This document shows positions 4,965 through 39,561 of a stretch of DNA of 64,000 bases, in pieces. Origin of the DNA: a virus; IMG/VR virus record IMGVR_UViG_3300022555_000009; one strand, 5' to 3'. Below the pieces are notes generated by a model, which saw only the letters and a list, made by a program, of their open reading frames with translations, made no database searches and was not told where the DNA came from. A program made the translations under genes and the position numbers. Each line of letters starts with the position of its first letter. The first letter of the stretch is position 1.

Positions 4965-6236
4965 ATGAACGAAGTCTTTAAGACAGTAATGAAATTCATT
5001 AAGGCAGAGCCATCAAGTCACCACACAAATCCCTGGTTTAGAAGACTAGGATTCCTAGCTGTAGGTCTCGTGGATGTTTTAATCGGGGTGAACTTTTTCT
5101 CTTCATTGGGAGAATCTTGGATTATGCCTTTTGCTGGCGCAATTCTTGTATTCATGAAAATCTGGCAATGGATATCTGCAAACCATGAGAAAAAAAGCCT
5201 CTTCAAAAAGAGGCTCCACTACATAACCTGGTTTACTATTGCAGTAATGTCCATCATAGCTGCCATATCTTTTGGATTGGCTATTTCGTATGCTACAAAT
5301 AGTGATGTCACAAAAATTGTAGGACTACAGTCCGTCAAAGACCAGGCTATAACAACTCAACTTCAGTCTTTAGCAGTTGAGAGAAAATCGATACAAACCC
5401 AAATAGATGATATTCTCGTTAAAGAAAGTCAGTTAACTCAATATGATACCAAAGCAAGAACTGCGATGGAAACTCAGTTAAAGGATGTGCGTAGTCGCGC
5501 AGACTCTTTGGATGCTAAGATTAATGCTTTCAATAGCGGCACAGCATCGGATATTGCTAAGCAGAGGGTGGCAGTGAATGCGCAGTTAATATTCAGCCAA
5601 ATATTCTCTGAAGCTGGAGCCAGACCCGCAATTATGATATTCTTCTTATTGTTCGGTTTAGCAATTGAGTTAACTCTAGCCCTATCTGCTATACCGGCTG
5701 CAGGAGAATTAGAGGTAGTCGTAGAAAAATCACAAAAAGAAACCACAGTAGATTTTATGTCGGAGTTAAGCAAACTTCAATTTCAAATTGAACAACAACA
5801 AAAAGAAATCGAAGCAAGGCGAGCTGAAGCCATGGCGGCACCAATAAAGAAACCTAAAAAGGTATATAATAAGAAGATAAAGTTGAATCAGGAGGAAATG
5901 ACTACATTTGTCGCAAACATTAGTAATCCTCCGGAGCCTTCTGAGGCCTTGAAAGCCATATTTAATCCTCCTGTAGTTGAAGAAGAGCCTGTAATGATAC
6001 GGTTTGCGATGGAGTTATTTGAAAATGGGGTCCATCCATATCTGAAGACCGCAGAAGAGACATCGGATATTCTTAAGATATCTCGAGAAGACGGAAATAG
6101 AATGTTTAAGTTTTTATCTGAATTAAAGGGACCAACTGGCTTTACTCTATTAGAGTTCAGAAAAGAAAGCCAAGCGTGGTATCCTAATTATACTAGTGAA
6201 GTAACAAAGCATTGGCTCAAAGAACTAAAAGATTAA
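4965..6236 (+). CDS. Membrane protein with coiled coil
   Basis: About four hydrophobic segments flanking a coiled-coil region. Confidence 0.6.
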   Translation: MNEVFKTVMKFIKAEPSSHHTNPWFRRLGFLAVGLVDVLIGVNFFSSLGESWIMPFAGAILVFMKIWQWISANHEKKSLFKKRLHYITWFTIAVMSIIAAISFGLAISYATNSDVTKIVGLQSVKDQAITTQLQSLAVERKSIQTQIDDILVKESQLTQYDTKARTAMETQLKDVRSRADSLDAKINAFNSGTASDIAKQRVAVNAQLIFSQIFSEAGARPAIMIFFLLFGLAIELTLALSAIPAAGELEVVVEKSQKETTVDFMSELSKLQFQIEQQQKEIEARRAEAMAAPIKKPKKVYNKKIKLNQEEMTTFVANISNPPEPSEALKAIFNPPVVEEEPVMIRFAMELFENGVHPYLKTAEETSDILKISREDGNRMFKFLSELKGPTGFTLLEFRKESQAWYPNYTSEVTKHWLKELKD

Positions 6237-20469: not shown

Positions 20470-20761
20470 TTGTCTGACAACATGTACGGGCCACCCACTG
20501 CATGCGTAAGGTTTTGGTCGGTGGATAAAGTGCTAAAGGGGATCGCCGTCAGAAGCGTAATCTCTGCATAAAGTTGGGTGTGAGTCCTGATGCGTGTCTA
20601 CGAGTACGGTAGGAAACTCGTAGGGCAGATCGCGTGTACTAAGTCAGCGACGGGAAGGTGGAAGGCCCTCGTATTTTTCTGATGAGGTCCTAGCTGAAGG
20701 AGCTAGAGACATACTCCCAAAATCGGCGATAGCCCATCATACTAATTACTATATTAAACAT

Positions 20762-24454: not shown

Positions 24455-24571
24455 CGGGTGGTGGCCCAGCGGTAGAGGCGGAAGTTATAAAAATGTGTCT
24501 CGTTCAGTAGACATTAACCGCAGCATAAAATAAGGAACTTCTAGTCGTAGGTTCGAATCCTACCTGCCCGG
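24455..24571 (+). tRNA. tRNA interrupted by a ~44-nt hairpin element; spliced anticodon probably AAG (Leu)
   Basis: CGGGTGG/CTGCCCG acceptor, GAAGT/ACTTC anticodon stem with a 51-nt loop; removing 24487-24530 leaves TT-AAG-GA. Confidence 0.7.
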
Positions 24572-24575
24572 CCTA

Positions 24576-27932: not shown

Positions 27933-28031
27933 AAACGAAAATTAGCAACGGTCCAGGTAATCAAGACCGTGGAACCTATTGAAAATGCTGACAGCATTGT
28001 TAAGCTCACCTTTGAAAGCATGGGTTGATCT
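27933..28031 (+). pseudogene. Dead 5' fragment of the RNA ligase gene
   Basis: KRKLATVQVIKTVEPIENADSIVKLTFESMG*S aligns with KRKLATIQSIDKVIPIEGADNIVKITFKNIGWS of 28828. Confidence 0.85.
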
Positions 28032-28087
28032 TTTCTCGGTCTCCTACTAATTGGTTAGAGATTGATACCAATTTAGCAGGAGACATA

Positions 28088-28819
28088 ATGTATAACATTC
28101 TTTATGAAACTACGAATTTAGCAAATAACAAGATCTACATTGGGGTTCATTGTACAGATGACCTCGAAGATGGATATTTCGGCTCTGGCACCGTGTTACG
28201 ACGCGCCATAAAAAAGTATGGCTTAGCTTCTTTCAAAAGACGAATTTTGGAACAATTTGAAACTATCGAAGCTGCGTTTGTTAGAGAAGCAGAAATTGTA
28301 AATATGTCTTTTCTTGCAAGAAAGGATATCTACAATATTCGATTGGGCGGGGACGGAGGGGATTATCTCGGGTGGCTCAGAACTGCAGACCCTCAAAAAT
28401 ATGAGAATATACGACAAAAGCTTAGAGAGGCTGCTCCTAAAACAAAATCAGAAGCTCACAAACGAGCAATCAGCAAAAGTAAAAAGGGTAAGCCGAGAAC
28501 TTGGAAGACAAGAGGTAACACAGGGAACAAGCATAGCGAAGAATTCAAAGCATGGCAAGCAGAGAGAACTAAAAATAGAAGATGGTATACAAACGGAATA
28601 GACAATCTCTATTTATGGCTTTCGGATATCCCTCCTGAAGGTTTCTATCCCGGTAGAAAAGTAACTTGGGATCACCCAAGCCCGCCGTCGAGCAAGGGGA
28701 TACCGAAATCAGAAGAATCAAAAAAGAAGTTGTCCGAAACACGAAAAGCAAAACATATCGTGCCAGGTAATAAGGGAAAAAAGAAGATAATTATAGATGG
28801 TGAAATCCACTATCTATAG
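28088..28819 (+). mobile_element. GIY-YIG (Seg-like) homing endonuclease with NUMOD3-like repeats
   Basis: ILYETTNLANNKIYIG.H......GYFGSG; KHSEE/KSEESKKK repeats; AGGAG RBS and ACTAATT upstream. Confidence 0.88.
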
Positions 28820-30557: not shown

Positions 30558-30776
30558 ATGGGTCACTACGATAGTTCATACGCTTCAGATGACTACAGAG
30601 AATTGTCAAAGAAAGGCAAATCAGAACTTCATAAGTCCTTCCGCGCAGAACTTAAAGAGCAGGGTTGTGTTTGGGGTACTTATGATGATGTACACGGGAT
30701 AGCTTTAGCTCACTGGGCTGAAGAGAAAGGATATAGAATAGAAGGAACTCATACATTTTTAGTATACAAAAAATAA
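30558..30776 (+). CDS. Hypothetical protein
   Basis: TAAGGA RBS. Confidence 0.45.
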   Translation: MGHYDSSYASDDYRELSKKGKSELHKSFRAELKEQGCVWGTYDDVHGIALAHWAEEKGYRIEGTHTFLVYKK

Positions 30777-30782
30777 AATTAC

Positions 30783-30854
30783 GTGGAGATGGTGTAACTG
30801 GTAGCACCTCTGATTGAAGGTCAGACTGTCCGGGTTCGAGTCCCGTTCTCCGCA
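30783..30854 (+). tRNA. tRNA-Phe(GAA)
   Basis: Cloverleaf; TT-GAA-GG loop. Confidence 0.85.
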
Positions 30855-30856
30855 AT

Positions 30857-30926
30857 GTGTCATTAGCTCAGTGGTAGAGCGCTTGACTGTGAATCAAGAG
30901 ACAAGGGTTCGATCCCCAATGACACC
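30857..30926 (+). tRNA. tRNA-His(GTG)
   Basis: Cloverleaf; CT-GTG-AA loop; C discriminator. Confidence 0.85.
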
Positions 30927-30994
30927 CTGAAAAAAAGGAGAACACGATGTATTAGGTTTGAAAAAGATATAGAAATTATACCAATATACAACAC

Positions 30995-31071
30995 AGGAGC
31001 CTAGCTCATCGTAGGTCAGTAGCGCAATCCTTATAAGGTTGATGTGCCGAGTTCAAGCCTCGGGGCTCCTA
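30995..31071 (+). tRNA. tRNA-Ile(TAT)
   Basis: AGGAGCC/GGCTCCT acceptor; CT-TAT-AA loop. Confidence 0.8.
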
Positions 31072-31072
31072 T

Positions 31073-31188
31073 TGAACGATAGCTCAGTGGGTAGAGCACG
31101 AAAAAATTAGGTCTTGACAAGACCTAAACTGCAATCCAAAATTAGCCTATTAAGCTCGTGGTCGTGGGTTCGAATCCCACTCGTTCAA
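31073..31188 (+). tRNA. tRNA-Asn(ATT) interrupted by a 43-nt hairpin element in the anticodon stem
   Basis: Removing 31102-31144 restores CGAGC-CTATTAA-GCTCG and a full cloverleaf. Confidence 0.75.
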
Positions 31189-31376
31189 AGTGGGGTCTTG
31201 TTTTACGCGTCATTACGAAGAATTTGTCAGAATAGAAGGTTCGACAGTAAAGCGAAAGCTTTTCATTCTCTCCGTAAAAGAAGCATGATATGCGTAATGA
31301 CGCTTTTGAAAATGGAAGGGTCGGATAATGGTATTCCAGTAGATTGACTTCTGGTATTCCATCAGACTAATTATAT

Positions 31377-32000
31377 ATGAATTGTCGATACTGTGGAAGA
31401 GAGTGTAAGAATCCTAATAGTTTACGTAACCATGAAAGGTTATGTAAGTCTAATCTAAATAGGCAGCAAACTAAAGGGAACGTGGGGGGAGTTCCTTGGA
31501 ACAAAGGACTTACGATAGCCTCTTCGGAAAAACTTAAATTCCTTAGTGAAAGACTTTCGTTAAAATATAAGAATCAAGAACTTCAACCCTCCTTTAAAGG
31601 GAAAACACATACGGTGGCTTATAAGGTTCGTATGTCGGATCTTATCAAAAGTAGGTACGAGGATGGATGGCAACCCAAAGCTGGCCGATGTAAGAAAATT
31701 AAGTATGAAAGCTCAATTGCGGGGTCAATAAGTGTGGATGGTACCTGGGAGTTGGCAACAGCAAAGTACCTTGATACCCTTGGGGTTCAGTGGATCAGAA
31801 ACACAAAGAGATTTGATTATGTTGATGATGTAGGAGTAAGCAGAAAATACACTCCCGACTTCTATGTGAAAGATTGGAGTTCTTACCTCGAAGTAAAAGG
31901 GTATGAGACTGATCTGGATAGAGCTAAGTGGAGGGGTTTTCCAGAGAAGCTTATTATCTGGAAAGAGAGAGAATTGAGAAACTTAAATATATTGGAATAG
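31377..32000 (+). mobile_element. PD-(D/E)xK homing-endonuclease-like gene
   Basis: C2HC Zn finger, PWNKGL / FKGKTHT NUMOD-like motifs, YTPDF...YLEVKG nuclease core. Confidence 0.8.
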
Positions 32001-32078
32001 AGAAGCATTGGGGAAATGCACGAACCCGCTAAGTTCGAGGCTGGGCAACCGGCAGTGGATCGTAACCACCTTATTCCG
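31994..32078 (+). tRNA. tRNA-Ser(GCT), divergent, nested inside the split tRNA-Ser
   Basis: GGAATAG/TTATTCC-G acceptor, CGAAC-CCGCTAA-GTTCG arm, GCTGG-GCAA-CCGGC variable arm. Confidence 0.7.
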
Positions 32079-32179
32079 GCGCAACAGCAGTGGGGCATAC
32101 GAGTTCGAGTCTCGTTCCTTCCGTAATTTAACAATATATTAATTCATGACCTTATATTAATAATGATATAGGAGTTACC

Positions 32180-32401
32180 ATGAGTACACGTCTAAAAGTA
32201 GTATTTAATTTTAAGCAGCCTTCCGAAAGAAATGGCACCATCCTTCAGTTCACTCCCGTTACTATGGGCAGCTCCGAAAACGAAGCTTTCTTCAAATTCA
32301 CTCCCGGCGGTCAGATTTCTTTCTATTGTGCCAATCCTGTTGTAGCCGATGAGTTTGAGATGGGAAAGCAGTATTACGTAGATATTACGCCTGCTGAGTA
32401 A
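32180..32401 (+). CDS. Conserved small phage protein
   Basis: SENEAFFKFTPGGQI......F..GK.YYVDIT motif; AGGAG RBS. Confidence 0.6.
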   Translation: MSTRLKVVFNFKQPSERNGTILQFTPVTMGSSENEAFFKFTPGGQISFYCANPVVADEFEMGKQYYVDITPAE

Positions 32402-32603
32402 TCTATGGAATATGCACTAGAAAAAATCATAGGCACGGCATTTGAAATTCTCATATCGGGATTTCTTTAGCTTGTCTTGCTAAGTACTTGTGGAATATAT
32501 GGAGGAATTCATGACCTTTTGGTCTGAAATCTTAGCAATAACTCTGGGATGTTTGGGAATGGAACTCGCTCGCAGACTTGAGAAAAATCCAACCTAATTA
32601 GGT

Positions 32604-33485: not shown

Positions 33486-33570
33486 GGAGCAGTATGCTAG
33501 CGGCTATGCACGCGGCTTTGAATACCGTTTATCTCGCAAGGGATCGCAGGTTCGAGTCCTGCCTGCTCCG
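33486..33570 (+). tRNA. tRNA-Ser(TGA)
   Basis: Cloverleaf with variable arm. Confidence 0.85.
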
Positions 33571-39458: not shown

Positions 39459-39489
39459 AAGAATAGGGGGTTCATCAGAACCCCCTCCT

Positions 39490-39560
39490 GTATCCATAGC
39501 CTAGTGGCAAGGTGGGGATCTCTAAAATCCCACACGCGGGTCCGATTCCCGCTGGATGCA
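39490..39560 (+). tRNA. Amber suppressor tRNA (anticodon CTA)
   Basis: GTATCCA/TGGATGC acceptor; GGGAT-CTCTAAA-ATCCC arm. Confidence 0.8.
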
Positions 39561-39561
39561 T

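Follow-up and report, generated by a model that had tools for sequence, protein, structure and literature searches.

A probable intron-less homing cassette carrying a replacement tRNA-Ser(GCU) inside a broken tRNA-Ser gene of a lake phage

We analyzed a 64,000-nt stretch of viral DNA, referred to throughout as the window, which comprises bases 50701-114700 of the 170.6-kb IMG/VR virus record IMGVR_UViG_3300022555_000009. The record has direct terminal repeats, and sequence of the same phage is also present in freshwater and lake metagenome runs. The window uses the standard code, its genes lie mostly on the plus strand, and all 26 tRNA genes that ARAGORN called in the 170.6-kb genome fall inside it. 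The subject of this report is a nested locus at 31314-32123, where the two remnants of one tRNA-Ser(GCT) gene (type A, the outer tRNA) flank a short leader, an endonuclease gene and a complete, divergent tRNA-Ser(GCT) gene (type B, the inner tRNA), all on the plus strand. Other loci are referred to by L numbers where they must be told apart.

The 5' remnant (31314-31346) spans 33 nt and corresponds to nt 1-34 of the type A tRNA; it reads as a class II tRNA from the acceptor strand through the D-arm and the 5' side of the anticodon stem to U32-U33-G34. A search with an exact 24-mer recovered a single viral contig, L002, in which a tRNA-Ser(GCT) of 87 nt stands uninterrupted (5413-5499); the remnant is 97% identical to it (E 2e-12; 32/33 nt identical to positions 1-33, the first 26 without a difference). 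This homology stops after anticodon base G34, where L002 goes on CTAATCTGC and the window diverges. An uninterrupted type A allele, in which GATTG is followed directly by CTAATCTGCCGCCACAG, is also found in contigs of the same lake metagenomes as the window phage, and the 3' remnant in the window begins with sequence similar to the variable arm of this allele. That remnant (32079-32123, approximately nt 44-73) comprises the variable arm, a canonical T-arm (ACGAG-TTCGAGT-CTCGT), the acceptor strand TCCTTCC and G73. The acceptor strand pairs 7/7 (one G.U) with GGAAGGG at 31314-31320, about 780 nt away; nhmmer placed 32091-32123 at positions 57-89 of the tRNA-Ser profile, ARAGORN in its intron mode linked both outer pieces, and a pattern search with the 3' remnant gave no match. 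An earlier note on this DNA had placed the halves of a Ser-type tRNA at 31314-31347 and 32079-32123. The 3' half stands as described, and the 5' half is right in location and identity but ends at 31346, as base 31347 already belongs to the cassette. The same note had named the broken gene as GCT by elimination, the other three Ser isoacceptors being intact, and they are indeed intact (Ser-TGA, Ser-CGA and Ser-GGA at 33486, 33580 and 34069), with no second Ser-GCT gene called by ARAGORN in the 170.6-kb genome. The assignment now goes beyond elimination: as the 5' remnant is homologous to the intact tRNA-Ser(GCT) of L002, the broken gene was therefore Ser-GCT, and L002 and the lake contigs supply the uninterrupted allele that the note had proposed to look for in related phages.

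The cassette opens with a 30-nt leader (31347-31376). Part of it is a copy of tRNA 5' sequence, with 31352-31366 repeating outer-tRNA positions 31329-31343 (D-loop to anticodon stem) as a 15-nt direct repeat of 87% identity, which may be the trace of an earlier layer of invasion. The leader also holds the motif ACTAATTA (31366-31373), which had been counted among the elements of the cassette. This attribution has to be given up, as the motif is genome-wide: it occurs 12 times in the window versus 3 expected (a four-fold enrichment that 0/100 shuffles reached), mostly on the plus strand and usually 11-27 nt before the starts of open reading frames (ORFs), as well as shortly before tRNA genes (for example at 20741, 22865, 25154, 31366, 32971 and 40692). 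It is also present in L009 and L011, two loci with related cassettes, whose leaders are similar and have (AC)TAATTAATT immediately before the ATG. We read it as a likely promoter-like signal shared by this group of phages, not as a component of the cassette.

Between the leader and the inner tRNA lies a free-standing, homing-endonuclease-like gene with an intact ORF (31377-32000), the TAG stop of which overlaps the 5' end of the inner tRNA gene, within its initial 7 nt. The encoded protein of 207 amino acids (aa) has an N-terminal CxxC...H...C zinc finger, a NUMOD3-like linker and a C-terminal PD-(D/E)xK nuclease with the catalytic-motif residues P160-D161-F and E172-V-K174. It belongs to a family of at least 471 homologues (E<1e-5), essentially all of them unnamed. 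In an alignment of 33 family sequences all 31 invariant residues are kept in the window protein, among them C3, C6 and H19 of the zinc finger and D121, E125, P160-D161, E172 and K174 of the nuclease; C23, also present, is nearly invariant. Profile searches returned phrog_15137 'endonuclease' from PHROGs at 3e-14 and, from Pfam, sub-threshold zinc-finger and TnsA-like matches (PF08722, 16.5 bits vs a cut-off of 26.5, a profile on which the homologue P0085 scores 27.8 bits). The AF2 model (pLDDT 88) matches, over residues 103-207, the nuclease domain of TnsA (PDB 1t0f) with Z 8.3, a root-mean-square deviation of 3.3 and 104 aligned residues, followed by Bax1 (Z 6.7), I-Bth0305I (Z 6.2 over 75 residues), Vsr (Z 5.9) and I-Ssp6803I (Z 4.0); a Foldseek search of the model against the PDB gave no match at E<=0.001. 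The model and the motif together indicate that the protein is of the PD-(D/E)xK fold, as the note had proposed for this ORF. Beyond the TAG stop the frame is open for 42 further codons (31998-32126), through both tRNA pieces to a TAA at 32124-32126. Read-through of the TAG was considered, as the genome encodes a tRNA with anticodon CTA (39489-39561, of the amber-suppressor type and labelled 'Pyl' by ARAGORN), and was rejected: homologues have their stop at the corresponding position, within the 5' end of the tRNA, so that no extension need be assumed, and the open frame is probably a coincidence.

The resemblance to TnsA, which is the best structural match (to its N-terminal nuclease domain) and is accompanied by the weak PF08722 match, raises the possibility of a small Tn7-like or other transposon that was inserted by transposition. 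Against this, the cassette has a single nuclease ORF, with no transposase family matched and no other transposition genes, it has no transposon ends, no terminal inverted repeats are found at 31347/32078, and there is no target-site duplication, 9-15 nt of the target being deleted instead. An N-terminal zinc finger is no feature of TnsA, and the known homing endonucleases I-Bth0305I and I-Ssp6803I use the same fold. We thus consider a transposon extremely improbable.

The complete inner tRNA, the type B spare copy (31994-32078), has the anticodon GCT at 32028-32030, a long variable arm and a G73 discriminator, and folds, at minimum energy, into a clean cloverleaf that presents GCU as the anticodon, in keeping with its description in the note as a complete and very different tRNA-Ser(GCT). 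It departs from the canonical form at five points: the 8/9 linker has 4 nt, the D-stem 5 bp and the T-stem 4 bp, the T-loop reads AUCGUAA, and position 33 is a C (C33). The anticodon loop reads CCGCUAA in the window and CUGCUAA in L009 and L099. At the elbow, the D-loop has GG and the T-loop UC, the latter with A54/U58 in place of T54/A58. The long variable arm, G73 and the acceptor pairs G1-C72, G2-C71 and A3-U70 are, by known rules, bacterial Ser identity features. Type B stands uninterrupted in L099 (921-1005) and follows a 57%-identical endonuclease in L009. When the three copies (window, L009 and L099) were compared over 27 pairs, all 79 scorable cells were paired and 10/27 pairs were doubly compensatory, which 0/500 shuffles reached, while slid controls were 37-49% paired. 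The cloverleaf and its compensatory changes therefore point to a conserved, structured tRNA-like gene and not a decaying copy, and this covariation indicates that the spare is under structural selection. A search for the type B T-arm pattern across viral contigs returned one chance coding match only (L014). The best Rfam alignment at the locus is a composite, with the D- and anticodon arms of the inner tRNA and the T-arm of the outer one; it was rejected, as its acceptor strands would not pair.

A gene interrupted in its anticodon loop calls to mind a true intron, whether of group I or one excised and ligated by enzymes of the phage or the host, for example an RNA ligase, by which the outer tRNA would be restored in RNA. 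Group I introns of bacterial tRNAs lie in the anticodon loop, an RNA ligase gene is present in the phage (28828-29871), two other tRNA genes of this phage have 43-44-nt insertions, and a homologue of the endonuclease in the phage Apostate, described below, splits a tRNA(CAT) exactly at nt 36/37 with both halves perfect. Nonetheless, no Rfam intron or ribozyme family was matched at E<=10 in 30700-32500 or 31985-32130, which agrees with the note, where no group I intron core had been seen, and the non-coding part of the insert comes to just 30 nt. Further to this, the outer tRNA is without nt 35-43; it has lost two bases of the anticodon, A37, A38 and the entire 3' side of the anticodon stem, and splicing could therefore not restore it. 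The loss of remnant sequence varies among relatives, with L011 lacking 15 nt relative to L099 and the 3' half wholly lost in L009. The sole cross-gap cloverleaf from ARAGORN, a 'tRNA-SeC(tca)' at 31313-32124 with a 721-nt intron, was rejected, as the AGTAG/TTATT anticodon stem that it needs is weak, draws on the inner tRNA's acceptor strand and does not line up in register with the homologous intact tRNA of L002. An intron is thus, in our judgement, very improbable.

Sister cassettes provide the occupied and empty alleles of such a site. Flank identity between L011 and L099 amounts to 99.96% in 2476 nt and to 100% in 955 nt. At the same place L099 has an intact type B tRNA, while in L011 an 847-nt cassette replaces 15 nt of type B (nt 35-49): the first 34 nt of type B are kept, then comes the cassette and then the 3' part of type B, so that entry is after G34, as in the window. 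The cassette of L011 comprises a 24-nt leader with ACTAATTAATT, an endonuclease of 249 aa that is 47-50% identical to that of the window, and a complete canonical tRNA-Ser(GCT). In its sequence L011 is the mirror image of the window, with B invaded and A carried. The third related locus, L009, has a 22-nt 5' fragment of type A, the 57%-identical endonuclease and a type B tRNA, all in a different genomic context. The context of L011 and L099 was found in lake samples containing the window phage. In runs X1-X3, which were compared with 31314-31346 and 32045-32078 of the window, 955-nt lake contigs with the downstream context of L011/L099 end inside type B, where the occupied and empty alleles diverge; as assemblers break at polymorphic sites, these contig ends hint that both alleles are present in the lake samples.

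Further to this pair, 80 more IMG/VR loci with homologues of the endonuclease were retrieved, and 66 non-redundant contexts were compared. In 37/66 of these contexts a complete tRNA-Ser(GCT/ACT) starts -42 to +45 nt from the endonuclease stop, and another tRNA (Ser-TGA, Met, Ile or Glu) has this position in 4/66; in several family members the 5' end of the tRNA itself encodes the C-terminus of the protein. Just upstream of the endonuclease, approximately 17 loci have a 5' fragment of another tRNA-Ser, which ends at profile position 34-40, typically in YTG, and is in some cases followed by a TATAAATA-type motif that resembles the T4 late-promoter consensus. A 3' tRNA fragment follows the resident tRNA in at least eight loci, and L045 reproduces the whole arrangement of the window, with positions 1-35 and 46-88 of a tRNA of the L062 type flanking the cassette. 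In the nested pairs that were read (the window, L011, L045, L017, L019, L020, L037, L052, L040, L072, L010, L063 and L073), the anticodon stems of remnant and resident differ, sometimes by one base, which as a correlation only would fit a target allele and an immune allele.

Some loci are layered or unusual in other ways. L067 (1652-1737) has two stacked tRNA-Ser 3' fragments after the resident tRNA, L021 (1759-1873) has a partly deleted resident tRNA and then another 3' fragment, and L077 (1954-1990) likewise belongs to the loci with stacked remnants. The arrangement of L067 and L021 suggests serial overwriting of cassettes. The tRNA-Ser carried in L010 (846-936) and in L022 (after 1800) is non-canonical, with the D-arm replaced or shortened, and is missed by ARAGORN, while the one carried in L004 (3603-3690) has the anticodon ACT (A34) and a C.U mismatch in the anticodon stem.

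Distant homologues (27-32% identity) are also found in the tRNA regions of cultured phages of the Straboviridae and Ackermannviridae, where they are annotated just as 'endonuclease' or 'hypothetical'. IME341 has a 5' fragment of tRNA-Arg(TCT), the endonuclease and a complete tRNA-Arg(TCT), and PhaxI has a 5' tRNA fragment, the endonuclease and tRNA-Met. In Acinetobacter phage Apostate (L097, 1417-1453 and 2113-2152), one of the Lazarusvirus phages, the homologue splits its tRNA(CAT) into two perfectly complementary halves, with no spare. Lazarus (L102, 268-342) and other close relatives are without the gene and have an intact tRNA(CAT) at that place; the internal tRNA(CAT) sequence differs between Apostate and Lazarus, as would be expected for co-conversion. 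Among homologues, both L011 versus L099 and Apostate versus Lazarus show a presence/absence polymorphism at a defined site between near-identical genomes.

When these observations are combined, the locus is probably an intron-less homing cassette that carries a replacement tRNA, and we hold this explanation with good confidence. The earlier note had also seen a selfish cassette without an intron here, a proposal that is largely supported and gains from the empty and occupied pair of L099 and L011 and from the recurrence of the module in dozens of phage contigs. An endonuclease gene fused to a complete tRNA-Ser(GCU) would have entered another allele of the same tRNA gene right after G34, replacing nt 35-43. 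Where a co-infecting phage has an uninterrupted type A tRNA-Ser(GCU) gene, the endonuclease would cut it at the anticodon arm or close by, and repair from the cassette-bearing genome would copy the endonuclease and the type B tRNA into the break, with the retained tRNA halves, or longer flanks, acting as homology arms. The invaded gene would be destroyed and the target site removed with it, Ser-GCU decoding would be kept by the spare tRNA, and the differences of the spare from the target in the anticodon stem and variable arm would protect it from the enzyme carried beside it. We infer cleavage and its site, the immunity of the spare, its charging and use, and the present activity of the copy in the window.

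Several results weigh against this explanation and need to be considered alongside it. The inner tRNA scores 16.5 bits on RF00005, versus a threshold of 29, and is aligned there as a chimera with the outer T-arm; ARAGORN in its default mode misses type B in the window, as it does in L099, and calls the copy in L009 as tRNA-Ser(gct). Since C33 replaces the near-universal U33, translational function of the inner tRNA is not assured. Most resident tRNAs beside homologues have ordinary anticodon loops, and any immunity must therefore rest on differences in the stem or the variable arm. The remaining two points, that no isogenic empty-site allele of the exact locus in the window was found in contigs of five metagenome runs and that no obvious Shine-Dalgarno sequence precedes the endonuclease ATG, also speak for a fossil, that is, for a past invasion by an endonuclease that is no longer active or mobile and is now inherited vertically. 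A mismatch in the variable-arm stem of the 3' remnant is likewise consistent with some age. Against a fossil, the ORF is intact and keeps 31/31 invariant positions, both remnants are still long and well preserved, and the sister cassette is polymorphic between the near-identical L011 and L099. We therefore judge a fossil to be quite unlikely. Contigs joining across the cassette of the window were also absent from the metagenome runs, where contigs only were searched, and a search with the downstream neighbour protein returned only an unrelated contig without tRNAs (L101).

The cassette might alternatively be a domesticated tool by which the phage shuffles, replaces or amplifies the tRNAs of its array, for instance in favor of variants that escape host anticodon nucleases, as is reported for SegB of phage T4, and would then not be purely selfish. 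Throughout the family, the genes are linked to tRNA arrays of phages, and the carried tRNAs are often unusual (type B, the D-arms of L010 and L022, A34 of L004). SegB is also reported to promote the inheritance and amplification of tRNA regions (PMC2330249; PMC13096335). However, one tRNA-Ser(GCU) is destroyed for each one brought, so that there is no net gain, and decaying remnants, together with the two stacked 3' remnants of L067, look like repeated selfish invasion. Domestication is compatible with homing by a cassette with a replacement tRNA and does not exclude it; as an explanation in its own right we consider it unlikely, though not negligibly so.

An extension of the homing explanation, which we put forward tentatively and regard as possible rather than probable, is that two reciprocal gene drives operate among the co-occurring lake phages, with the cassettes of the window and L009 sitting in A and carrying B, and that of L011 sitting in B and carrying A. 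Each spare would then be the target of the other enzyme, no allele would be safe, and cassettes would overwrite one another. Remnant halves would stack in Russian-doll fashion, of which the 3' pair of L067 and the leader copy at 31352-31366 could be examples.

In genes that are essential or useful, homing endonucleases normally persist inside a self-splicing intron or intein, or beside the gene, and the PD-(D/E)xK homing enzymes known to us are intron-borne. One of them, I-Ssp6803I (PDB 2ost), is encoded by a group I intron in a cyanobacterial tRNA-fMet and targets the anticodon region of the tRNA gene. It is like the window enzyme in its PD-(D/E)xK fold (the Z of 4.0 given above), with no sequence similarity detected between the two proteins, and differs in that it rides a self-splicing intron that restores the tRNA in RNA, whereas the locus in the window has no ribozyme, has lost part of the target and would rely on a second tRNA for the function. 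I-Bth0305I (PDB 3r3p) shares the fold of the nuclease domain and the order of an N-terminal DNA-binding region and a C-terminal nuclease; it is intron-encoded in a phage protein-coding gene, with no link to tRNA and no carried spare gene.

Closer in arrangement is the intronless homing of T-even phages, exemplified by seg and mob genes and by mobE, which splits nrdA in phage Aeh1. There too a free-standing gene lies beside or inside a conserved gene, double-strand-break repair proceeds with co-conversion of the flanks, and function is kept without splicing. In those phages function is kept by resistant polymorphisms in the flanks or by reassembly of the split protein, whereas in the window a whole second, divergent copy of the gene is nested in the remnants of the first. 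Intronless homing and genes-in-pieces of T-even phages are reviewed in PMC2988022. The nearest described system is SegB of T4, a homing endonuclease of the GIY-YIG type whose free-standing gene lies among the clustered tRNA genes of that phage and which is reported to recognise a motif of the T-psi-C stem-loop (PMC2330249). As in the window, a free-standing gene lies in a phage tRNA array; SegB recognises tRNA-gene DNA and drives the inheritance of its own gene and of neighbouring tRNA genes without an intron. The two differ in the enzyme, GIY-YIG in SegB as against a zinc finger and PD-(D/E)xK in the window, and SegB is not described in that report as lying within a tRNA gene or as joined to a substitute for the gene that it targets. 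In the literature searched, the coverage of which was incomplete, no description of a tRNA-nested endonuclease with a fused spare tRNA was found. We rate the cassette as an extension of free-standing ('intronless') homing by a carried replacement gene.

Other features of the array deserve mention. The RNA ligase gene (PF09414, 1.7e-22, with an OB domain) lies within the tRNA array, 1.5 kb upstream of the cassette, and is preceded by an ORF at 28025-28816 with a weak SegE-type GIY-YIG match (7e-4), which may be a second homing endonuclease. The 43-44-nt insertions mentioned above lie in the anticodon arms of two tRNA genes, one at 31073-31188, which scores 50.9 bits on the Rfam tRNA model with a 54-nt insert, and one at 24455-24573. 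Both inserts have an A-rich start, contain a hairpin and a C(T/C)GCA element and finish with an AAAAT(A/T)AG tail, and no known ribozyme was matched in them in Rfam. Since both predicted anticodons begin with A34, the exact insert junctions are uncertain. RNA-level tRNA surgery may thus take place in this phage genome, but would be unable to rebuild the outer tRNA-Ser(GCT). Just upstream of the 5' tRNA remnant lies the spacer with a perfect 11-nt inverted repeat (31207-31217 / 31293-31303, GCGTCATTACG / CGTAATGACGC), the arms of which are 75 nt apart.

The cassette would represent a third way for a homing endonuclease to survive, in which the nuclease sits inside the gene and brings a complete, divergent replacement with it. 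This would explain the half-tRNAs and odd tRNA-Ser genes in phage arrays that are missed by tRNA finders or called pseudogenes, and those who annotate such genomes should expect nested tRNA remnants around endonuclease genes of this kind. A large unannotated family can now be defined as tRNA-gene-linked endonucleases, and, as their targets appear to be tRNA genes, its enzymes are candidate site-specific nucleases. L011/L099 and the cultured phages Apostate and Lazarus offer natural pairs on which these predictions may be tested. If the reciprocal drives are true, they would be an intron-free answer to the problem that introns solve, with the host gene kept by a spare that is shipped along, and would drive an ongoing turnover of tRNA alleles in the arrays of phages.

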